Positions 19,893-30,525 of a DNA stretch of 30,525 nucleotides are shown here, piece by piece; position 1 is the stretch's first letter, and every line of letters starts with the position of its first letter. The position numbers and the translations under genes were made by a program. Location of the stretch: the NCBI GenBank assembly GCA_046758705.1, contig JBHIAT010000023.1:1-30525 (forward strand), in the 5' to 3' direction. The notes under the pieces are model-generated. The model was given only the letters and a program-made list of their open reading frames with translations. It was not told the DNA's origin and ran no database searches. This stretch comes from Candidatus Bipolaricaulia bacterium (GTDB lineage: Bacteria > Bipolaricaulota > Bipolaricaulia > JBHIAT01).

Positions 19893-21029
19893 ATGACCGA
19901 GCGATCAGAAAGACCCGAGAGACGCAGACCTTACCTGCTGTGGCTTCTCATCGGGATCCTCGTCACGCTCGGTGTGTCGTTCGCCGTCTCCCCAGGCTTC
20001 CAGGATACGGTGCGCACCCAGTTCAGAATTCTGTTCGGTAAACAGGGATTTGCCTTGGAGACTTTGGCGGTCTCCCCAGAGCACCCGATGGTCGGCGATG
20101 TGGTGGTCTTTTCCGCCCGGGTCCGCAACCGTGGGGCCGGCGGAACCGACAACCTGTCCCTGCGCGTGGATGGGGAGCTGACCCGCATCCGAGAGATCTC
20201 GCTTGAGGCCCGAGAAGAGGCGGTCGTCCCATTCCGTGTCTCCTTCGACCACGACGGTGATCACCAGGTCGAGATCCGCGGACAGCATGCGGAGGGGATC
20301 TTGAGGAAGCGGGTGGATGTCGGACCGCTGATCCTGGTCGAGGGCCTGGAGGTTCCCAAATCGGCGATCACGGGAGAGACGGTAGAGATCGGCGTGCGGT
20401 TGCGAAATCGAGGGCTCACGGATGGCTCCTTGCCGCTGACGCTCACCGTGGATGGACAGGAGATGGGGACGAAGGCGTTTTCGGTGAACTCCGGTGCGTC
20501 GGTGATCGGTCGCTTTGCTGCGACGTTCCCGGAGCCGGGTAGATTCCAGGTCACGATCGACAGGGCAACGGCCGAGATCGAAGTCTGGTCGGCCACTGTA
20601 TCGGCCAATGTCAACCGCCAGGCCCTGGAGATCGCCAGCCGAGAGGTCCAAGGACAGAACAGCTTTGGCGCCGAGTACCTCCGGACGGTGACGGTGTTCA
20701 GCGGAACGGATGGCACCTATCGCGTGGTCGTCGACTACAACGCCGACAATGATCGATCGGCCGGGGAGATCAAACTGGAGATGGAACGGGTGATGCGGCG
20801 GTTGTATCGGGCGTTCTACTCGAACGATCTGAATGTCAGCCAGGTGTCGGTGGCCGCATACCTGCCGGTGGAGGTTCAGGCTGGGGAGATCCGCACCCAG
20901 GTCGTCTACCGGACCATGCTCGATCGCGAGCGGGCCAGACAGATCGACTGGACAGGGGTGACGCTCGCAGATTTGCGCAATACCTGGGAGCTGGAGGCAC
21001 TGAACCCGCAACTGTTCGGCGGAAGTTGA
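19893..21029 (+). CDS. Membrane-anchored CARDB/Ig-like domain protein
   Basis: N-terminal TM, then two Ig-like repeats (G..V.....V.NRG...L.VDG...F...G.H/F.V.I). Confidence 0.75.
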   Translation: MTERSERPERRRPYLLWLLIGILVTLGVSFAVSPGFQDTVRTQFRILFGKQGFALETLAVSPEHPMVGDVVVFSARVRNRGAGGTDNLSLRVDGELTRIREISLEAREEAVVPFRVSFDHDGDHQVEIRGQHAEGILRKRVDVGPLILVEGLEVPKSAITGETVEIGVRLRNRGLTDGSLPLTLTVDGQEMGTKAFSVNSGASVIGRFAATFPEPGRFQVTIDRATAEIEVWSATVSANVNRQALEIASREVQGQNSFGAEYLRTVTVFSGTDGTYRVVVDYNADNDRSAGEIKLEMERVMRRLYRAFYSNDLNVSQVSVAAYLPVEVQAGEIRTQVVYRTMLDRERARQIDWTGVTLADLRNTWELEALNPQLFGGS

Positions 21030-21110
21030 AATTTATCGGGAATTAGATCATAATAACGATTCAAATGTGAGAAAATCGAGAGAGAGTATCCTTCAGACAG
21101 CCAATATGCT

Positions 21111-21136: not shown

Positions 21137-21215
21137 CCTCAGGATTAGGATATATAATATAACCGCTGTTCAAGTGTTCAAGCGGCCCAAGAACAGGAGA
21201 TGAAGAAAACTCTTA

Positions 21216-21797
21216 ATGCTTATTGATGGAGTGATCTTGGCGATTCTGCTGGCGTGGCTTTCCGGAGGTGATTTTCGGAAGCTGGCCGATATCCCGCTGA
21301 AGCGGGTTTTCCTGATCGTCATGGCATTCGGCATCCAGTTCGGGCTCATCTTCTCCCCTGGGAATTCCTTCCTCCACGCCTACAACCCGTATATCCACCT
21401 AGGAACCTACGGCTTGCTCTTCTGGGCGTTGTGGGAGAACCGGCGAGTAGTCGGGATGAAGCTGGTCGGCCTGGGGCTTGCGCTGAACTTCCTCGTCATC
21501 GCGGCCAATGGTGGGAAGATGCCGGTCTCACTCTCGGCGATGCAGAAGACAGAACTCGACACACCCCAAACCATGGACTCGCTCCAAAGCGGCCGTGCCT
21601 TCAAACACAAGTTGATGACCGAGAAGACACGGCTCGATTTTCTGGGGGATGTGTTCTACATCCCGAAGCTCTATCCGGAGATGCGGGTGTTCAGCATTGG
21701 AGATGTCTTGCTTTTGGGAGGCATTGTCCAGATGATCTTCTACTATATGAGACAGGGAAAGAAAGTGACGGGTCCTTTCCGATGGATAAGTCGATAA
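21216..21797 (+). CDS. DUF5317 family membrane protein; candidate LspA-like aspartic peptidase
   Basis: Multi-TM; N..VIAANGGKMPV, LDFLGDV and FSIGDV motifs. Confidence 0.8.
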   Translation: MLIDGVILAILLAWLSGGDFRKLADIPLKRVFLIVMAFGIQFGLIFSPGNSFLHAYNPYIHLGTYGLLFWALWENRRVVGMKLVGLGLALNFLVIAANGGKMPVSLSAMQKTELDTPQTMDSLQSGRAFKHKLMTEKTRLDFLGDVFYIPKLYPEMRVFSIGDVLLLGGIVQMIFYYMRQGKKVTGPFRWISR

Positions 21798-21842
21798 GAT
21801 ATCGGGAATGGAGTCGTTAAACCTGTTGCTGTTCGGCGGGGG

Positions 21843-21871
21843 TTGAAATTTAGATTGAATTAGGTTAAAAT
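21843..21871 (+). promoter_or_regulatory. Sigma70 promoter for the peptide / HD-GYP unit
   Basis: TTGAAA-N17-TAAAAT. Confidence 0.6.
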
Positions 21872-22076
21872 CGAACGATAACTACGCAACTGTTGATCTG
21901 TGTCATTGTACCCTTTGATGGGCTCAATTAAGGTGGGTGTTGAAGGAGCAACGGCCAGCCAGAAGCCACGACATACAACGCCGTCCTATTCCACGTGAGT
22001 ACCTTCGAGAGCGGAGCGGAGCTCGTTCATCCCTTCTAGCGGACGGATGGAACAGGTCTCTAAGAAGGTGGAATCA

Positions 22077-22163
22077 ATGAAGGCTCGGCTGGTAAAGGCA
22101 ATCCTGACCTTGCTCGGCCTGCTGCTCGCAGGTGGGGCTGGTGCAGGTTGGACTGGTGGTTAA
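22077..22163 (+). CDS. 28-aa putative signalling-peptide precursor MKARLVKAILTLLGLLLAGGAGAGWTGG
   Basis: RBS AAGAAGGTG, ATG...TAA; basic n-region, hydrophobic h-region, short Gly/Trp tail; below the ORF-track size cut-off. Confidence 0.75.
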   Translation: MKARLVKAILTLLGLLLAGGAGAGWTGG

Positions 22164-22220
22164 ATACTTTACCCATTCTGGCTGGCTGGCTCCTAAATTA
22201 ATCTTTACGCGGAGCGGATC

Positions 22221-23519
22221 GTGAAGCTTCCCTTAACAGCTCGCCTCTATATCGCTCTCCTCGGCTCCCTTAGCCTTCTCGCTCTAGTCTGGTCTGGAAT
22301 CAGGCTACCCTGGGAGGATTCCTGGAAAGTCCTTATCTTATTCTCCGCTCTTTATATGAGTGCAGAACTATTACAGGTAAGAATTCCGAAAACACCAGGT
22401 TTTCTTACCGTAGGGCCTGCTATAGCATTGGCGATGATCTATATCGGCGGGCCGTGGCTGGCAACATGGGGGGGCGCAGTAGGCAGCTTAATCGGTGAAA
22501 TACTTGCTCGAAAAACTAACAAACTCAGAGCTAGAGGGATTGCTTTTAATGTTTTTCAATTCAGCATTGCCTCTTTCCTGGGGGGGATCTTCTTTATTGC
22601 AACCGGGGGCGTGGCAGGAGAGATCTCCTTACCTAATATTTTATCCGCTGTTGCTGCCGGTGTCATCTATTTCGTTGTAAACATTTTTCTTCTCTCCATG
22701 ATCTTCTCTCTTACCACCGAGAAATCCTTTGTTACCGTCTGGAAGTTGAATCTCCGAAATTTAACGGCGAACTATCTGGCCCTCACCCCGCTGGGCATTT
22801 TGCTCGGTATTATTTATATCCAAATCGGTATTGTCGGTGTCATCCTTATAGCCGGACCGTTGCTGCTTGCCCGATATGGATTCAAGCTCTACATGGAGAC
22901 GCAGGAGGAGCACATCGCCGTGCTACGCAGCCTGGTCAACACCCTCGAAGCCAAGGACGAATACACCAAGGGTCACTCAGAACGGGTCGCCTTCTATGCA
23001 GTGAGGCTCGCCCAGGTCCTCGACCTTCCCCCCCAGAAGATCGCCGAGATCATGAGGGCCGGCTACCTGCACGACATCGGCAAGATCGCCATCGATGATA
23101 CCATCTTGCGCAAGCCCGGAAAATTGAGCCAACACGAGCTCGACCTCATTCGGGAACACCCGGAACGCGGTGCCAGGATGGTCTCCAGTCTGCGGTTCCT
23201 AGGGGAGACCGTTGACATCATCCGTTACCACCAGGAGAAGTACGATGGGACCGGCTATCCCGAACGCCTGAAGGCGACACAGATCCCCATGGGTGCGCGA
23301 ATTCTGCGGATCGCCGACACCTACGATGCGATGACTTCGAATCGCCCCTATCGACCCGCCCTGGGCGATTCCCAGGCGCTCGCTGAGCTACAGCGGTGTG
23401 CAGGAACGGATTTCGATCCCCAGCTCGTCAAGCCGTTCGTCACGATGATCAACGCCAATCATAAACCACTACGTCGGTACAATGTTCAGGAGATCGAGGA
23501 GGTCCTCAGTGCTTATTGA
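22221..23519 (+). CDS. Multi-TM sensor plus HD-GYP cyclic-dinucleotide phosphodiesterase
   Basis: About 6-7 N-terminal TMs; EAKD.YT.GHSERV, LHDIGK, HQEKYDGTGYP and AD.YDAMTSNRPYR motifs. Confidence 0.92.
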   Translation: MKLPLTARLYIALLGSLSLLALVWSGIRLPWEDSWKVLILFSALYMSAELLQVRIPKTPGFLTVGPAIALAMIYIGGPWLATWGGAVGSLIGEILARKTNKLRARGIAFNVFQFSIASFLGGIFFIATGGVAGEISLPNILSAVAAGVIYFVVNIFLLSMIFSLTTEKSFVTVWKLNLRNLTANYLALTPLGILLGIIYIQIGIVGVILIAGPLLLARYGFKLYMETQEEHIAVLRSLVNTLEAKDEYTKGHSERVAFYAVRLAQVLDLPPQKIAEIMRAGYLHDIGKIAIDDTILRKPGKLSQHELDLIREHPERGARMVSSLRFLGETVDIIRYHQEKYDGTGYPERLKATQIPMGARILRIADTYDAMTSNRPYRPALGDSQALAELQRCAGTDFDPQLVKPFVTMINANHKPLRRYNVQEIEEVLSAY

Positions 23520-23574
23520 CGGAGCGATCCTGGTGATTCTGCTCGCTTGGGCTCTAAGGAAGAGAGGTGGATAG
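23509..23574 (+). pseudogene. 5' stub of a second DUF5317 gene
   Basis: MLIDGAILVILLAW vs MLIDGVILAILLAW at 21216 (35/42 nt identical); RBS GAGGAGGT; stops after 21 aa. Confidence 0.75.
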
Positions 23575-23589
23575 CCTCTTCCAATTCCA

Positions 23590-24246
23590 ATGGAGGAGAA
23601 AGAGGTTCAACGGTTAGAGACAGAGCTTCAGAAGATTGAAGATATCCTGCGTGCCCGTGTCGTCACCGGCCGGGTGGGGGAGATTATCGCAATTCACATC
23701 CTGGCACGGGCCAAGCGCAGCCCGCATCAGGTCGTCCGGGATGTGGAAACCCTGATAAACACGCTCGTTGACAAGCCGATCGACCACCGCAAGATCAGCG
23801 TGGCCCAGATCGCTGGGGAGGGGGAGGAGGTCTCCGACAGGCTCCAAGTCACCGCGGGGATCCGTCTGGTCATCTCGGCCGTGAACGTCTCGACGATGAA
23901 AGACCGGGTCTGGTGTGAGGTCCGGTTCTCCGTGGACGATAAGGAGCTTATCGGAGAGGCAGAGGGAAAACGCCTTGACCAGAATCTGCTGCGCGTCGCC
24001 GCCGAGGCGACCCTGAATGCATTCGAGGAGTACCTGAACAAGAGTTGGTCGTTCGCGGTCGAAGAGATCCGCACGATCCCCCTGATCAGTGGTCAGGCCA
24101 TCATTGTCCGTGTCAGGCTATTGATCGCCGGTCGGGAGGAGGTATTGCTCGGCATCGCCCCGGTCGGGGATAGCCCATCGGAGGACGCGGTCAAGGCGAC
24201 CCTGAATGCTGTCAACCGGCGGATCTCGACACTGATTACCAAGTAA
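23590..24246 (+). CDS. Conserved hypothetical protein with an internally duplicated C-terminal motif
   Basis: VVRDVE..IDHRKISVAQ N-domain; repeated AAEATLNAF / AVKATLNAVNR. Confidence 0.7.
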   Translation: MEEKEVQRLETELQKIEDILRARVVTGRVGEIIAIHILARAKRSPHQVVRDVETLINTLVDKPIDHRKISVAQIAGEGEEVSDRLQVTAGIRLVISAVNVSTMKDRVWCEVRFSVDDKELIGEAEGKRLDQNLLRVAAEATLNAFEEYLNKSWSFAVEEIRTIPLISGQAIIVRVRLLIAGREEVLLGIAPVGDSPSEDAVKATLNAVNRRISTLITK

Positions 24247-24257
24247 TCATATCTTAA

Positions 24258-24830
24258 CTAGGTCGTCTCTAGGCGACAGGCAACGCATAGGTCGTCCTGC
24301 TCATCGTGGTAAATCCCGCACCGGAAGCAGCGCTTCCAACCCCACTGCTCCCGGATCCACTCCCGTTTAACCTCCGAGTGAATCATCTCCATCAGTGCCC
24401 GCTTCAACCGATCATCCTCAACTCCACGCACCATCTCCTCAATCCGCTGATCTTCCGCCTCATCCAGGGAGATTTGAGGGAGATCGTCCGACTTCCTTTC
24501 CGCCTGCCGTGCTTTCGTCCTTTCCTGTATCTGTCCCTTGATCACCTGAAACCGAACTCCTTTGATCCAGTTGGTTTCGCTCAAGCGCGCGTTGATCTTC
24601 TCCACGAATCGCTCCTCCATCATCGAGAGTTCCTGTTGAACGACGTGGTTGGTCACCTCTATATGGAGAACCCTGTTCTTGACGATCAGTGGAGTGGTGA
24701 GTCTCCCGATATTTGCATCCACCACTTCAGCCCATATCCAAAGCGGCTCCTGCTGCATATATTGCCGATAGAGCGCGTTCCGCCTGAAGATCCCGATGAT
24801 CGCTTTCCGGTCCATAAGCCGGCTCCTCAT
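24258..24830 (-). CDS. dciA: DciA (DUF721) family protein with C-terminal Zn-ribbon
   Basis: W.EVV...I...T.P...KN.VL.IEV......QEL motif; two CxxC pairs; follows recF. Confidence 0.78.
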   Translation of the reverse strand: MRSRLMDRKAIIGIFRRNALYRQYMQQEPLWIWAEVVDANIGRLTTPLIVKNRVLHIEVTNHVVQQELSMMEERFVEKINARLSETNWIKGVRFQVIKGQIQERTKARQAERKSDDLPQISLDEAEDQRIEEMVRGVEDDRLKRALMEMIHSEVKREWIREQWGWKRCFRCGIYHDEQDDLCVACRLETT

Positions 24831-26405: not shown

Positions 26406-27761
26406 TTAATCGCTTGATAGTTTTTTAAACTTCGTAAGAAGATTCTCCCTGATCTCTTCGGTCTCGGTTTGGAACAGGGGGATCTCCTTCAACAACTTTT
26501 TGGTCGTTTTATAGGAGTGCATGATCGTTGTATGGGCACGATCACCGAACTCCCTGCCGATCTCCGGGAACGAGCTGTCAGTCAGCTCCCGGGACAGATA
26601 GATGGCAATATGTCTGGGATGAGTTATCCCCTCCTTTCGGCTTTCTCCTTCCAGGTCAGCGATGGAGACTCCATAGAACCGGGAAACCTCCTCCTTGATA
26701 GCGGCGGTGTTGAGCACTCGCTCCTCCTCTTCGGGCAGGAGGTCTTCGACCGTTTGTGTATCGATTTCGCCGTTCTGGAGGCCCATCTGGGCGACGACAC
26801 GAAGCAGAGCCCCCTCCAGTGCCCGGATGTTTGAGGCGACCCGGGTTGCGATCATATTTAAGATCTCGTCTTTGATCTCCAACCCGTTCTGCCGTGCCTT
26901 ATGTTTGAGGATAGCGACCCGAGTCTCAAAGTTCGGGGGTTGGATATCGGCAACTAGACCCCATCTGAAACGGGATACCAGTCGATCTTGAAGGTAGGTC
27001 AACTCGCGTGGCGACCGATCGGAAGACAGCACGATCTGTCGGTTCCTCTGGTAGAGTTCGTTGAAGGTGTGAAACAGCTCCTCTTGGGTCCCTTCCTTGT
27101 CCTTAAGAAAGTGGACATCATCGATGAGCAGAACATCTGTTACGCGATATTTGTTACGAAAGGCGGCCGTCCGATCCCGCTGAATCGCGTCGATCATCTC
27201 GATGGTAAACCGTTCTGAGCTTGTGTAGATGACGTTGTAGTGACCGTGGTCAGCGAGGTAGTTGCCGATCGCCTGAAGCAGGTGGGTCTTCCCCAGGCCC
27301 ACGTTTCCATGGATGAACAGCGGATTATAAATCTCTCCAGGGGATTTGGCCACGGCCATGGCGGCGGCGAACGCCAGCTGATTGTTCTTCCCGCGGATGA
27401 AATTCTCGAAAATATATTCCTTCTTGAGATGGAGTTCACCGGAAACGTCCTTGGTCTGGAAGCTGTTGATCTCTTCTTTGCTCAGCCGCGTGGGGGTAGC
27501 CGAGATCGAGGAGGGTCGGCCGGAGGTGATGATGTGGAGTTCGAGTTCCTTCCCGGTGAGATCGGTCAACACGGACGTGATCAGATCCCTATACCTGCGG
27601 GTGAGTCCGCTTTTGATGAACTCGTTGGGAACTTCGATAATCAACTGCTCCCCGTCCAACTTCGTTCCTGCCGTGTCCCCGAACCAAGTCTCGAAGCTCG
27701 CCTGGGAGATCTTATCAGCGATCTCCTTTTTTGCCGTTTCCCATAAGGTTTTCGGTTCCAT
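26406..27761 (-). CDS. dnaA: Chromosomal replication initiator DnaA
   Basis: YNPLFIHGNVGLGKTHL, LLIDD, QEELFHTFN, RLVSRF and RAHTTI motifs; start set at ATG 27761. Confidence 0.98.
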   Translation of the reverse strand: MEPKTLWETAKKEIADKISQASFETWFGDTAGTKLDGEQLIIEVPNEFIKSGLTRRYRDLITSVLTDLTGKELELHIITSGRPSSISATPTRLSKEEINSFQTKDVSGELHLKKEYIFENFIRGKNNQLAFAAAMAVAKSPGEIYNPLFIHGNVGLGKTHLLQAIGNYLADHGHYNVIYTSSERFTIEMIDAIQRDRTAAFRNKYRVTDVLLIDDVHFLKDKEGTQEELFHTFNELYQRNRQIVLSSDRSPRELTYLQDRLVSRFRWGLVADIQPPNFETRVAILKHKARQNGLEIKDEILNMIATRVASNIRALEGALLRVVAQMGLQNGEIDTQTVEDLLPEEEERVLNTAAIKEEVSRFYGVSIADLEGESRKEGITHPRHIAIYLSRELTDSSFPEIGREFGDRAHTTIMHSYKTTKKLLKEIPLFQTETEEIRENLLTKFKKLSSD

Positions 27762-27787
27762 TGACAACCCCCACCTGAGGCAACCTA

Positions 27788-27968: not shown

Positions 27969-28044
27969 TGGTGCCGAGACCCGGAGTCGAACCGGGGACA
28001 CCCGCCTTTTCAGAGCGGTGCTCTACCACCTGAGCTACCTCGGC
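27969..28044 (-). tRNA. tRNA-Phe(GAA)
   Basis: 76-nt cloverleaf; anticodon loop CT-GAA-AA, GGTTCGA T-arm, encoded CCA. Confidence 0.97.
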
Positions 28045-28049
28045 GATAG

Positions 28050-28125
28050 TGGCGGGGGGTACGGGATTTGAACCCGCGTCACAGGAGTGACAGTCCTGCA
28101 TCCTAGGCCACTGAACGAACCCCCC
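28050..28125 (-). tRNA. tRNA-Asp(GTC)
   Basis: 76-nt cloverleaf; CAGGA-CT-GTC-AC-TCCTG, GGTTCAA, encoded CCA. Confidence 0.97.
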
Positions 28126-28227: not shown

Positions 28228-28319
28228 GACACGCGTCCGCGACAAAGGCAAACCCATCGAAAGATGGGGGCGCAAAGCAACGGGTCCGCAAGGATAGCCG
28301 AGCTGCCGAAGGAGGTGTC
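28228..28319 (+). ncRNA. c-di-GMP-I (GEMM) riboswitch aptamer 1
   Basis: GGCAAA-CCCATC-GAAA-GATGGG-GGCGCAAAGC...GCTGCCGAA; P1 GACAC/GTGTC. Confidence 0.9.
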
Positions 28320-28320
28320 C

Positions 28321-28416
28321 ATCGGTCCCGAACGGGTAAACCTCCCGAAAGGGGAGGGGCACAAAGCCACAGACCCTAACGTAGAGCCGAGGGTGGCTGG
28401 GCCACCGAAGGACGAT
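28321..28416 (+). ncRNA. c-di-GMP-I riboswitch aptamer 2
   Basis: GGTAAA-CCTCCC-GAAA-GGGGAGG-GGCACAAAGCC...GGCCACCGAA; compensatory U-A for C-G; P1 GTCC/GGAC. Confidence 0.82.
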
Positions 28417-28520
28417 GCAAAGTTTAACGCTTGGGCACAACCAGATCTTCGCAGGCCAACGATACAGCCTACCTTTGCAGGTTCAGACCGATTTAACTCC
28501 TACGGCTGAGTTAGAACCAA

Positions 28521-28607
28521 ACGCGCCCATGACAAAGGCAAACCCATTGAAAGATGGGAACGCAACGCTGTGGGTTCGCAAGGACAGTGACAGTCGGGCT
28601 GCTGAAT
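28521..28607 (+). ncRNA. c-di-GMP-I riboswitch aptamer 3 (diverged copy of aptamer 1)
   Basis: GACAAAGGCAAA-CCCATT-GAAA-GATGGG-AACGCAACGC...GCTGCTGAA; directly before the RBS AGGAGGTG. Confidence 0.7.
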
Positions 28608-28624
28608 AGAAGGAGGTGAGGCGG

Positions 28625-29020
28625 ATGAGGAGGAGAGCGGTTGTTGTTGCAGTTTGGGCCCTCGCATTCGTGTTGGTGGTGGCCGTCCTCGCCACGCCGG
28701 TCGCATTCGCGAAGAAGAGGAGGAGTTGTAACTATGACGCGGCGTTGAAAGCGCTTATCACAGCCACCAACGAGGCGATCAACGCCAAGATTGAGGATAT
28801 TAAAAAAGCGGCGGCCACCAAGAGCACTAGAAGAGAACTGCGGCGTCTCGTCAGACAGCTGAAAAGATTTGCGAATAGGCAGATCAGACAGCTGAGGAGG
28901 GTGGCAAAAAGAGAGTACGGCTGCCGGCTCAAAAAGAGTCGGGTGTCGATCACCCTCGTATCGTCGAACAGAGACAGAATCATTAGAACGGTCGATCCAA
29001 TACGGATCGCAGGAGGGTGA
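28625..29020 (+). CDS. Small, very basic secreted protein of unknown function
   Basis: RBS AGGAGGTG; signal peptide ending AFA; K/R-rich helical mature part; C-terminal VDPIRI. Confidence 0.8.
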   Translation: MRRRAVVVAVWALAFVLVVAVLATPVAFAKKRRSCNYDAALKALITATNEAINAKIEDIKKAAATKSTRRELRRLVRQLKRFANRQIRQLRRVAKREYGCRLKKSRVSITLVSSNRDRIIRTVDPIRIAGG

Positions 29021-29120: not shown

Positions 29121-30525
29121 ATGAAAGGATTAAGTCTCCATCGCGCGGATGATGTTATCGATAGAGTACAGAAAGCAGGGGCGAAGTTCTGTCTCCTCGC
29201 TCACGGGGATGACCTGGAAGTTAGCAAGATCACCATCGCTCCAGAGAAACGGGTTTGCCTTTACCCGACCACGCCCGAGGATGGCAAGGGTTATGAGTTC
29301 CTCTATATCTTGGCCGGAGAGTTGACCTGGGCGGGAGAGGATGAAAGTAAGCAAATCGTTCTCCGCGCAGGGGATTACGTATTTTTTCATGCTTTGCAAG
29401 AGGAAGCCCATTTCAAGACTGATACAGAGACGACCCTTCTCCATGTGGCATCTAAGCCATCCTTTCATATAGCGCGAGAGGAGATCAAAGACCTGATCGC
29501 CCTGGCACAGGAGGTCGAGCGCAAGGACAAGTACACCGAAGAACATTGTCGGAGAATCGAGAGGCTCTCGATAAAGGCAGGGGAGCAGCTCGGTCTGTCT
29601 GCCGACCGGCTAGAGGATCTGGCGTTCGCGGCCTTCCTCCATGATCTGGGGAAGGCCGGGATCCCTGAGCACATTCTCGGCAAAGCGGGCAAGCTCACCG
29701 AGGCAGAGTGGGAGGAGATCCGCAAGCATCCGTCCATCGGCAGGTGGATGGCTGAGCGGAAGTCTTTCCTGAAGGAGGCGGCCCGGATCATCGAGCAGCA
29801 TCACGAGCGGGTCGATGGAAAAGGTTATCCGAAGGGGCTGAGCGGAGAAGAGATCAGTCTGGAGGCCCGGATCGTCGCGGTAGTGGATGCCTATGACGCG
29901 ATGACGACGGATCGTCCGTACCGAGACGCACTCTCTGAAGCAGAGGCGATCGCAGAGCTGCGCAAGAATGCGGGGACCCAGTTTGATGAGCAGGTGGTGG
30001 AGACGTTCCTCAATGTCTTGAGCGAGAGCGAACGCCAGGAGGAATTAGGGATCACCGATCGGAGATCGGAGCGGCGACTCGAGAGGAAGTTGCTGAGAGT
30101 GGGCGAGGGACTCCTGTCGCTACAGGACGTGAACGAGATCCTGGATCGGGCGACCGAGGTCATCACCCAGCACAGCCGGTTCCGACGGGCGGTAATCTCG
30201 CTCTATGAGCAACCGATCCCCCTGTTGCGGATCGAGGAGGCACAGGTGGTGAAGGTCGCCACCTCCGGACTGACTCAGGAGGAGGAGGAGAAGATCAAGC
30301 GGAGCCCGGTCGCTCCAGAGGATCGCAAGCAGATCGTTAACGATCGGTTCAAGTTCAGCCGTTCTTATTACATCCCTCAGGGTCGGTTCGCCTGGGATCC
30401 TGAAATGGTCGTGAGGGAGAGTCGCATGTCGGTCGAGGAGATCGAGGACTGGTACCCGGGCGATGCGTTATTCATCCCCCTGTATGTGGGAGATCGGATC
30501 CTGGGGTTCATCTCGGTCGACGATC
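29121..30525 (+). CDS. Cupin + HD-GYP + GAF signalling protein, partial (runs off the window)
   Basis: Manual translation: EFLYILAGEL...LRAGDYV (cupin), KDKYTEEHC, LHDLGK, HHERVDGKGYP, DAYDAMTTDRPYR, then a GAF-like region ending FIPLYVGDRILGFISVDD. Confidence 0.88.
   Translation, partial: MKGLSLHRADDVIDRVQKAGAKFCLLAHGDDLEVSKITIAPEKRVCLYPTTPEDGKGYEFLYILAGELTWAGEDESKQIVLRAGDYVFFHALQEEAHFKTDTETTLLHVASKPSFHIAREEIKDLIALAQEVERKDKYTEEHCRRIERLSIKAGEQLGLSADRLEDLAFAAFLHDLGKAGIPEHILGKAGKLTEAEWEEIRKHPSIGRWMAERKSFLKEAARIIEQHHERVDGKGYPKGLSGEEISLEARIVAVVDAYDAMTTDRPYRDALSEAEAIAELRKNAGTQFDEQVVETFLNVLSESERQEELGITDRRSERRLERKLLRVGEGLLSLQDVNEILDRATEVITQHSRFRRAVISLYEQPIPLLRIEEAQVVKVATSGLTQEEEEKIKRSPVAPEDRKQIVNDRFKFSRSYYIPQGRFAWDPEMVVRESRMSVEEIEDWYPGDALFIPLYVGDRILGFISVDD

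Follow-up and report, generated by a model that had tools for sequence, protein, structure and literature searches.

We analysed a 30,525-nucleotide stretch of DNA from Candidatus Bipolaricaulia bacterium (contig JBHIAT010000023.1; this whole stretch is called the window below), in which a small open reading frame (ORF) lies between a gene for a DUF5317 membrane protein and a gene for a membrane protein with an HD-GYP domain. Comparison across genomes confirms that this ORF, at 22077–22163, is a genuine gene. Its product, here called the mini-protein, belongs to what conserved gene neighbourhoods indicate is a widespread four-gene membrane signalling module, made up of the mini-protein, a MASE9-HD-GYP protein, DUF5317 and a 218-amino-acid protein; as far as full-text literature searching shows, the module is undescribed. 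We give an even chance to the mini-protein being an unreleased, membrane-resident co-sensor or adaptor of MASE9 and DUF5317. In the window the four genes are the following.

21216–21797, + strand: DUF5317 membrane protein, 193 amino acids, assigned by Pfam, with five predicted helices
22077–22163, + strand: mini-protein gene, 28 amino acids, stop codon TAA at 22161–22163, recognized by reading of the ORF, by the family profile and by alignment
22221–23519, + strand: MASE9-HD-GYP protein, assigned by Pfam, with the MASE9 membrane part at about residues 1–230 and HD-GYP at residues 238–402
23590–24246, + strand: cytoplasmic protein of 218 amino acids, itself unmatched in Pfam, with a C-terminal part resembling the LeuA allosteric domain

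The mini-protein gene

The ORF is present as a preliminary description of this DNA had reported it, is conserved in dozens of genomes and has mostly synonymous substitutions. The genes on its two sides also proved to be those named there, since the DUF5317 and HD-GYP products match their Pfam families above the cut-offs and the HD-GYP motifs are readable and intact. Translation of the window from the ATG at 22077 gives MKARLVKAILTLLGLLLAGGAGAGWTGG, a protein that starts with basic residues and continues with a Leu/Ala-rich helix, the invariant Gly-Ala pair and the tail GAGWTGG. An in-frame ATG at 22047 would give 38 amino acids; however, 22077 is the likely start, because homologues elsewhere begin at Met-Lys and a Shine–Dalgarno-like AAGGTGG stands 6–7 nucleotides (nt) 5′ of it. 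The region 21728–22238 showed no differences in one contig piece from each of two further runs of the same study. Scans of the mini-protein with Pfam (E≤0.01) and NCBIfam gave no match.

Conservation across genomes

In the class, where 61 genomes were sampled (the window genome included), DUF5317 is present in 53. An HD-GYP gene followed by a DUF5317 gene on one strand was seen in 27 of the 29 class loci fetched, the other two being cut by the contig start. When 20 of the loci were extended 2.5 kilobases (kb) further upstream, 16 had an ORF of 36–51 codons directly 5′ of the HD-GYP gene; the four misses comprise two loci with less than 175 nt upstream, one that is N-masked yet shows the start of the ORF, and one with a second HD-GYP-like gene and the contig start upstream. 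The class ORFs read MKWG, a basic/amphipathic stretch, a hydrophobic helix, L-S-G-A, x-x-K-W-G and stop. The same ORF stands at 25 of 29 loci of the wider phylum, three of the misses having less than 100 nt upstream and one about 325 nt.

A scan with the DUF5317 alignment supplied a cross-phylum sample of 80 loci of named genomes, from Bacillota (several orders), Aerophobetes, Bipolaricaulota/Acetothermia, Thermotogae, Anaerolineae, Calditrichales, Ignavibacteriales, Armatimonadota, Actinomycetota and a Spirochaetaceae metagenome-assembled genome (MAG). We built a family profile from 45 mini-proteins and ran it (E<0.01) on every frame of 18 residues or more from either strand of these loci, 15,678 in all. 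Fifty-two of the loci include the start of HD-GYP and 150 nt or more of DNA in front of it; 42 of these gave a match 5′ of HD-GYP, and 5 of the 10 misses (L075, L084, L094, L137 and L140) have a look-alike ORF by eye. Every match was on the strand of the module, no more than about 500 nt 5′ of HD-GYP or DUF5317, and none was found elsewhere; those at L087, L107 and L131 sit 5′ of DUF5317 without an HD-GYP gene. As 27 of the matched loci had supplied sequences to the profile, only the non-contributing ones are independent. The scan of DUF5317 neighbourhoods that the preliminary description proposed thus finds the small ORF recurring, in conserved position and with conserved partners, which ties it to the membrane HD-GYP gene and DUF5317. 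Wherever DUF5317 sits, the MASE9 gene always has the mini-protein gene as its immediate 5′ neighbour, at a distance of about 30–100 nt, and DUF5317 genes with no MASE9 gene upstream have a small ORF in front in only 3 of 27 loci examined.

We compared the window gene with a counterpart in the same genome, copy C186 (see below), and found five synonymous changes and one non-synonymous change in 21 codons (proportions per site pS 0.26 and pN 0.02). Seven relatives of 36 codons gave a pN/pS of 0.34. Purifying selection at the level of the protein is shown by these substitution patterns.

The gene occurs in tandem at several loci: three identical copies each at L073 and L075, two each at L077 and L168, and three at L181. 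At L035, L038, L041 and L052, runs of N lie exactly at the mini-protein genes upstream of HD-GYP, with duplicated sequence on their flanks; these resemble gaps left in the assembly where the small gene is repeated in tandem.

The window mini-protein is 50–53% identical to a short type of Aerophobetes and Bacillota that carries AGGA, but only 19–34% identical to the MKWG/LSGA type of its own class. The AGGA-type mini-protein together with the 218-amino-acid partner resembles the Aerophobetes/Bacillota module (compared at L073, L077, L085 and L124), which hints at horizontal acquisition.

Sequence pattern and predicted topology of the mini-protein

Among the 45 sequences only the Gly-Ala pair that closes the hydrophobic stretch is invariant. 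This stretch is 14–18 residues long and ends in a small-x-small motif (A/S-G-A). The tail after Gly-Ala has a median length of five residues and follows the pattern x, hydrophobic, Lys/Arg, Trp or hydrophobic, Gly. Position +1 is Asn in 20 of the 45, +3 is Lys or Arg in 32, and +5 is Gly in 21; position +4, the most conserved of the tail, is Trp in 28 and hydrophobic in 44. In a MAFFT alignment the Trp of the window tail, GAGWTGG, falls at +4. A Trp-containing tail had been put forward in the preliminary description, and the Trp position does stand out in this way, although the five other copies in the same genome lack Trp. The lipobox-like site claimed alongside it does not hold: its defining Cys, which would be at +1, is absent from all 45 sequences, where the residues seen are N, G, F, H, S, P, A and D.

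On average 2.8 basic residues precede the helix and only the residue at +3 follows it, so that by the positive-inside rule the N-terminus is expected inside and the C-terminus outside. The mini-protein would then be a single-span membrane protein with a cytoplasmic N-terminus. Stable transmembrane helices are commonly anchored at the membrane interface by a Lys/Arg-Trp pair at the helix end.

The MASE9-HD-GYP sensor

The sensor matches HD_5 (PF13487) with 149.3 bits against a cut-off of 27.2 (E 1.1e-43), which places it in the HD-GYP family, and the HD-GYP motifs LHDIGK, YHQEKYDGTGYP (H..HxE) and RIADTYDA are intact in the translation. The closest solved chains are 5z7c, a 3′3′-cyclic GMP-AMP (cGAMP) phosphodiesterase (1.9e-35), followed by the cyclic di-GMP (c-di-GMP) phosphodiesterases 4r8z and 4mcw. 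The window protein is thus a putative cyclic-dinucleotide phosphodiesterase, with c-di-GMP or cGAMP as candidate substrate. Residues 107–210 match MASE9 (PF20972) with 37.4 bits against a cut-off of 24.3, making the protein a member of that family too. The authors who defined MASE9 proposed that ligands bind within the membrane (bioRxiv 10.1101/2021.11.05.467447).

Searching the whole genome returned two MASE9 genes, one in the window (C23) and one at C186, each with a mini-protein gene 5′ of it. A MASE9 search of 184 genomes of the phylum returned only frames of HD-GYP size, which speaks neither for nor against other output domains.

Other copies in the same genome

A profile search of 108,195 frames of the genome found six copies of the mini-protein: C23 in the window, C186, C45, C79, C42 and C297, the last a weak match (E 0.048). 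At C186 (locus L153) the mini-protein gene (593–679, tail APIRIAGG) is followed by a MASE9 kinase (733–2223) and a response regulator (2174–2851). The MASE9 part of this kinase is 84.5% identical to that of the window; its output domains are HisKA_3 and HATPase_c, followed by the REC-GerE regulator, and the similarity between the two loci stops at the MASE9 domain boundary. The mini-protein thus appears to travel with MASE9 whatever the output domain, because the C186 copy precedes a MASE9-kinase and the window copy a MASE9-HD-GYP protein.

The copy at C45 lies 5′ of a DUF5317 gene and that at C79 5′ of a truncated one, neither with HD-GYP nearby, and the C42 copy lies 5′ of a remnant only. 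Tails of the copies outside the window read APIRIAGG, ALRVAGS, PMRISGG... and PMRIRGG, with conserved leaders; they keep the hydrophobic, Arg, hydrophobic pattern, and none of the five copies has Trp. Large, divergently transcribed SARP-type regulators (Trans_reg_C and BTAD) lie upstream of two of the copies, at 17–2368 (− strand) in C42 (L154), where the protein also carries NB-ARC and TPR, and at 1–537 (− strand) in C79 (L155).

DUF5317 and its relation to the mini-protein

The window protein belongs to DUF5317 (PF17248) with 143.7 bits against a cut-off of 25 (E 5.9e-42), covering profile positions 2–150 of 151. Its model (mean predicted local distance difference test score, pLDDT, 83.9) shows five helices, with a mixed domain of about 60 residues between helices 4 and 5. 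The positive-inside rule would place the N-terminus outside, the C-terminus inside and the conserved domain (98–160) outside; the Lys plus Arg counts are 4.2 for loop 1, 1.25 for the four-residue loop 3 and 3.1 for the C-terminal tail. The same counts place the tail of the mini-protein and domain 98–160 on the same outer face. In 57 sequences from many phyla, residues G87, N91, N98, G100, M102, P103, D145, G162, D163 and G169 are invariant. All 11 longer DUF5317 homologues found have DUF5317 N-terminal to an MFS_1 or MFS_3 exporter, and DUF5317 is therefore tied to a transport process.

The preliminary description called DUF5317 peptidase-like, a designation that is left unsupported, because no family, fold or solved relative points that way and comparison with LspA gave a probability of 7.8%. 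A Pfam scan of the protein returned DUF5317 and no peptidase family; the family profile, searched against PDB sequences, matched at chance level only (E>0.2); Foldseek of the model against the PDB gave no row with E<1 and listed no LspA; a wide VIA-align search reached a best Z of 6.4, with helical hairpins only and again no LspA listed; and ESM Atlas gave no usable match. Comparison by hhalign with 20 LspA sequences of the class is a weak match (probability 7.8%, P 0.0044, 56 columns), in which LGD...FSIGD of DUF5317 is set on VVDF...FNxAD of LspA; of the Asp motifs the second alone is aligned, and the first catalytic Asp has no counterpart. A true LspA is separately present in 26 of 26 genomes searched. 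With no match in PDB sequences or folds, an LspA-like peptidase identity for DUF5317 is kept as no more than a weak lead, on the hhalign result.

We co-folded DUF5317 with the mini-protein, as had been suggested in the preliminary description. The pair scored 0.40 in three runs, against 0.00 for the best of three controls, the runs agreeing in at least 79% of contacts with a partner pLDDT of at least 60. Of 80 solved complexes 58 passed the mark that this pair passed, as did 2 of 110 mismatched pairs, counts that are only approximate here because we supplied the alignments ourselves; scores of 0.60 or less were given by just 7 of the 80 solved complexes and by both passing mismatches. Sharing its score range with those mismatches, the co-fold gives weak support to contact between DUF5317 and the mini-protein.

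The 218-amino-acid protein

The C-terminal part of this protein has two beta-beta-beta-alpha units, like the allosteric domain of LeuA and citramalate synthase. The model (pLDDT 88.7) matches 1sr9 (E 4e-05) and 3fig (root-mean-square deviation 3.8 Å over 126 columns), and 16 of 30 family members match the Pfam LeuA allosteric domain, with a best E of 7.9e-06. The protein is probably a cytoplasmic small-molecule-binding component, because the modelled fold matches these regulatory domains. Of the 80 cross-phylum loci, 29 have a homologue directly 5′ of the mini-protein gene. In the class relatives tblastn found no match to it beside the module at 1e-3, and the downstream genes there vary by locus. 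About 1.2–1.8 kb 5′ of the partner gene, raiA RNA motifs (RF03072, 103–167 bits) were seen at three loci of Bacillota and Calditrichales (L074, 1–293; L078, 1–142; L089, 1–202).

Candidate roles of the mini-protein

In the reading to which we give an even chance, the mini-protein would insert with its N-terminus inside and its C-terminus outside and would not be released. Its conserved tail would lie at the outer membrane face beside the outer domain of DUF5317, and within the membrane it would partner the MASE9 helices as a co-sensor or adaptor. This partnering would set the activity of HD-GYP and with it the level of c-di-GMP or a related dinucleotide; DUF5317 may couple the sensor to a transport process, and the 218-amino-acid protein could be a cytoplasmic ligand sensor. 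The orientation in the membrane, the contacts between the proteins and the influence on enzyme activity are what we infer. We favour a co-sensor because the gene strictly adjoins MASE9 whatever the output domain, because it persists beside DUF5317, because its tail pattern is kept across phyla, unlike fast-diverging pheromones, and because the MASE9 preprint proposed ligand binding within the membrane.

Several observations weigh against a co-sensor, and the following equally favour a processed peptide signal, which we consider rather unlikely. In that case the protein would be a leader with a tail of 4–9 residues, cut after Gly-Ala by signal peptidase I or DUF5317, released or exported (in some lineages by DUF5317-MFS) and sensed by MASE9, which would switch the HD-GYP phosphodiesterase in the window or the histidine kinase at C186. 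The basic start, the short hydrophobic core of 14–18 residues and the A/S-G-A motif read equally well as a cleavable Sec-type signal peptide. Tandem gene copies, some of them identical, are common, and a consumed product therefore fits better than a subunit in 1:1 ratio. The tails vary among close relatives and among the six genome copies, with the leader kept; each of the 11 longer homologues found carries DUF5317 fused to the N-terminus of an MFS_1/MFS_3 exporter; and C186 has the order of a classical peptide-pheromone cassette, with the small gene followed by a polytopic membrane kinase and a response regulator. Small gene, kinase and regulator is the layout of comCDE- and pln-type cassettes. 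Two more points count against a co-sensor: the C186 copy arose by recent duplication and may owe its place beside MASE9 to descent and not to selection, and the co-fold with DUF5317 is a pass of the weak kind. A peptide signal may also draw on DUF5317 itself, which has two Asp and two Asn, all invariant, close to the outer face and whose LGD...FSIGD stretch hhalign sets on the LspA motifs. It is opposed by the lack of a peptidase family, fold or solved relative of DUF5317 and the unmatched first catalytic Asp of LspA in that alignment, by the missing Cys after the supposed lipobox, by the lack of any AgrB, AgrD, C39 or double-glycine leader among our matches, and by the conservation of the tail pattern across many phyla, unusual for a species-specific signal. 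In some class relatives, moreover, the N-terminus carries a conserved extension of up to 25 residues on the cytoplasmic side. Proteins of 25–30 residues, we infer, cannot use co-translational Sec targeting (see PMC7549839). One form of the peptide proposal is a peptide-to-second-messenger system operating across phyla, with a precursor of 25–50 residues cut at Gly-Ala by DUF5317 as a new membrane peptidase, exported (in some lineages by the fused MFS pump) and sensed by MASE9, with HD-GYP or a kinase as output; we regard this as unlikely.

The constant position of the ORF immediately 5′ of the sensor gene, at about 30–100 nt, and the riboswitches found in the same leader at some related loci (c-di-GMP-I-GGC at L077) would also suit a cis-acting upstream ORF, whose translation tunes expression or membrane targeting of the HD-GYP mRNA and whose peptide has no function. 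Purifying selection on the protein, retention of Gly-Ala and the tail motif across phyla, copies that persist beside DUF5317 without a sensor gene and the existence of tandem arrays all argue against this, and we consider it very improbable. Nor is the ORF a chance reading frame in an intergenic spacer, as its 28 codons, its absence from gene calls and the lack of a family-library match might have suggested: it occupies the same position in dozens of genomes from many phyla, and the cross-phylum profile matches, the conservation in the phylum and the synonymous bias of its substitutions refute this explanation, whose probability we put at next to nothing.

Relation to known systems

The agrBDCA, comCDE and plnABCD systems and those with Phr and SHP precursors are peptide-pheromone systems of Gram-positive bacteria. 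The module resembles their cassettes in having a small gene directly 5′ of a polytopic receptor, in the peptide, kinase and regulator of C186, in a conserved leader with a variable short C-terminus, and in an associated membrane protein that could process or export the peptide. It differs in that no AgrB, AgrD, double-glycine leader or C39 was found, the window receptor is a putative phosphodiesterase and the tail is conserved across phyla. The Agr-type logic proposed in the preliminary description was not borne out. Pfam scans of DUF5317 and the mini-protein, together with NCBIfam, returned neither an AgrB peptidase nor an AgrD propeptide, and the window receptor carries HD-GYP and not a histidine kinase; a kinase with HisKA_3 and HATPase_c, and a REC-GerE regulator, belong to the C186 paralogue.

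In E. coli and Salmonella the sensor kinase PhoQ is regulated by MgrB and SafA, two small membrane proteins with a single span. They share with the mini-protein a length of less than 50 residues, one helix, a short conserved outer tail with Trp and, as proposed here, action on the membrane part of a sensor. There is no sequence relationship, and binding by the mini-protein is putative; here, moreover, the gene lies in the operon of the sensor itself, often in tandem, the output is HD-GYP (a kinase at C186) and DUF5317 is part of the set. Measured against the MgrB-like class, a functional grouping rather than a sequence family, whose members bind and modulate a membrane sensor, the mini-protein has fewer than 50 residues, a single hydrophobic span and a matching predicted orientation, and its co-fold weakly supports binding to DUF5317. 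Small membrane-protein regulators are reviewed as a class in PMC12648545.

HdgA (Vnz_24090) of Streptomyces venezuelae, the only MASE9-HD-GYP protein studied, likewise has a six-helix membrane domain and HD-GYP (PMC6205966; 10.1101/2021.11.05.467447). In the passages of these papers that deal with it, HdgA is membrane-bound, with no developmental phenotype and an input signal that is unknown (PMC6205966), and no mini-protein or DUF5317 partner is named. The description of the MASE9 domain mentions no partner gene in the main text (10.1101/2021.11.05.467447).

DUF5317 is like LspA (PF01252) in being small and polytopic and in carrying, close to the outer face, a pair of conserved Asp separated by about 18 residues; its putative substrate motif, L-A-G-G-A, is like a lipobox without Cys, and the FSIGD and FNxAD stretches align in hhalign. 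Unlike LspA, it has no Pfam, PDB-sequence or fold match to such a peptidase (hhalign probability 7.8%), and the lipobox Cys is absent.

MASE9 is an integral-membrane input domain of HD-GYP proteins that has no known signal. The mini-protein and DUF5317 are a testable candidate input for it, because the mini-protein gene precedes MASE9 across phyla and stays when the output changes. DUF5317, of which full-text searching found no description, gains a context as a partner of the mini-protein and of MFS exporters. The carriers include cultured thermophiles (Thermosediminibacter, Fervidicola, Thermohalobacter, Thermovorax and Thermoanaerobacterium), and experiments are therefore feasible.

Promoter, leader and rearrangement of the locus

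The remaining features of the locus are the following.

20992–21054 and 21809–21871: repeat pair 2 (copies D2a and D2b), CARDB gene end and promoter-like site, 73% identity
21026–21054, + strand: promoter-like site TTGAAA-17-CATAAT, 5′ of the relocated DUF5317 gene and inside repeat copy D2a (20992–21054)
21194–21257 and 23487–23550: repeat pair 1 (the former is copy D1a), last 22 nt of the HD-GYP gene and DUF5317 start, 77% identity
21194–21215, + strand: remnant of the 3′ end of an HD-GYP gene, abutting the DUF5317 start and forming the first part of repeat D1a (21194–21257)
21809–21871, + strand: repeat copy D2b, sharing 73% identity with the CARDB gene end and the DNA downstream of it
21872–22076, + strand: 5′ leader of about 205 nt
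23509–23574, + strand: vestigial DUF5317 start, 21 codons (VLIDGAILVILLAWALRKRGG) and then a stop, overlapping the HD-GYP stop codon

A promoter and ribosome-binding site of its own had been attributed to the mini-protein gene. The ribosome-binding site is borne out by AAGGTGG; the private promoter is less likely. A sigma-70-like site, TTGAAA-17-TAAAAT, with 10 of 12 matches, lies at 21843–21871 (+ strand) inside D2b, about 205 nt 5′ of the mini-protein ATG. It is probably an operon promoter rather than a private one, because the gap between the mini-protein stop and the MASE9-HD-GYP start is only 57 nt and our scan placed no terminator-like site in it. The leader showed no Rfam match up to E=10 (21780–22240) and no c-di-GMP riboswitch, and it folded no better than shuffled sequences (z = +1.12). 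At gathering score, Rfam found no family in 19 loci of the class and the window's own genome.

The gene order of the window is the product of an old rearrangement, shown by the two repeat pairs. The 21-codon stump marks the ancestral position of DUF5317, 3′ of HD-GYP; a duplication and deletion shifted DUF5317 upstream, leaving the stump behind HD-GYP. The same HD-GYP remnant is also found 5′ of the paralogous DUF5317 genes, and the order DUF5317, mini-protein, HD-GYP recurs at L075, L083, L098 and L135.

Riboswitches and neighbouring genes

Three tandem aptamers of the c-di-GMP-I class lie at 28238–28606 (+ strand) of the window: a GGC variant at 28238–28311, followed by others at 28325–28409 and 28527–28606. 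About 500 nt separate the last of them from a cupin and HD-GYP gene (29121–30524, + strand) that runs off the window, and an ORF with no Pfam match (28616–29020) lies in between. The preliminary description took the riboswitch-controlled gene at 28.6 kb as a plausible output of the module. It is a second (cupin-)HD-GYP gene, and because it encodes another predicted phosphodiesterase, the connection is generic rather than specific; a link of this gene to the module is possible. At L077, an Aerophobetes MAG, a c-di-GMP-I-GGC aptamer (2286–2362, + strand; 61.9 bits against a gathering score of 59) stands directly 5′ of two tandem mini-protein genes, and in this lineage the whole module would be under riboswitch control.

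On the − strand of the window, beyond the module, are genes for a DciA-domain protein (24258–24830) and DnaA (26406–27767) and two tRNA genes (27972–28125), so that the module adjoins a replication-initiation neighbourhood.

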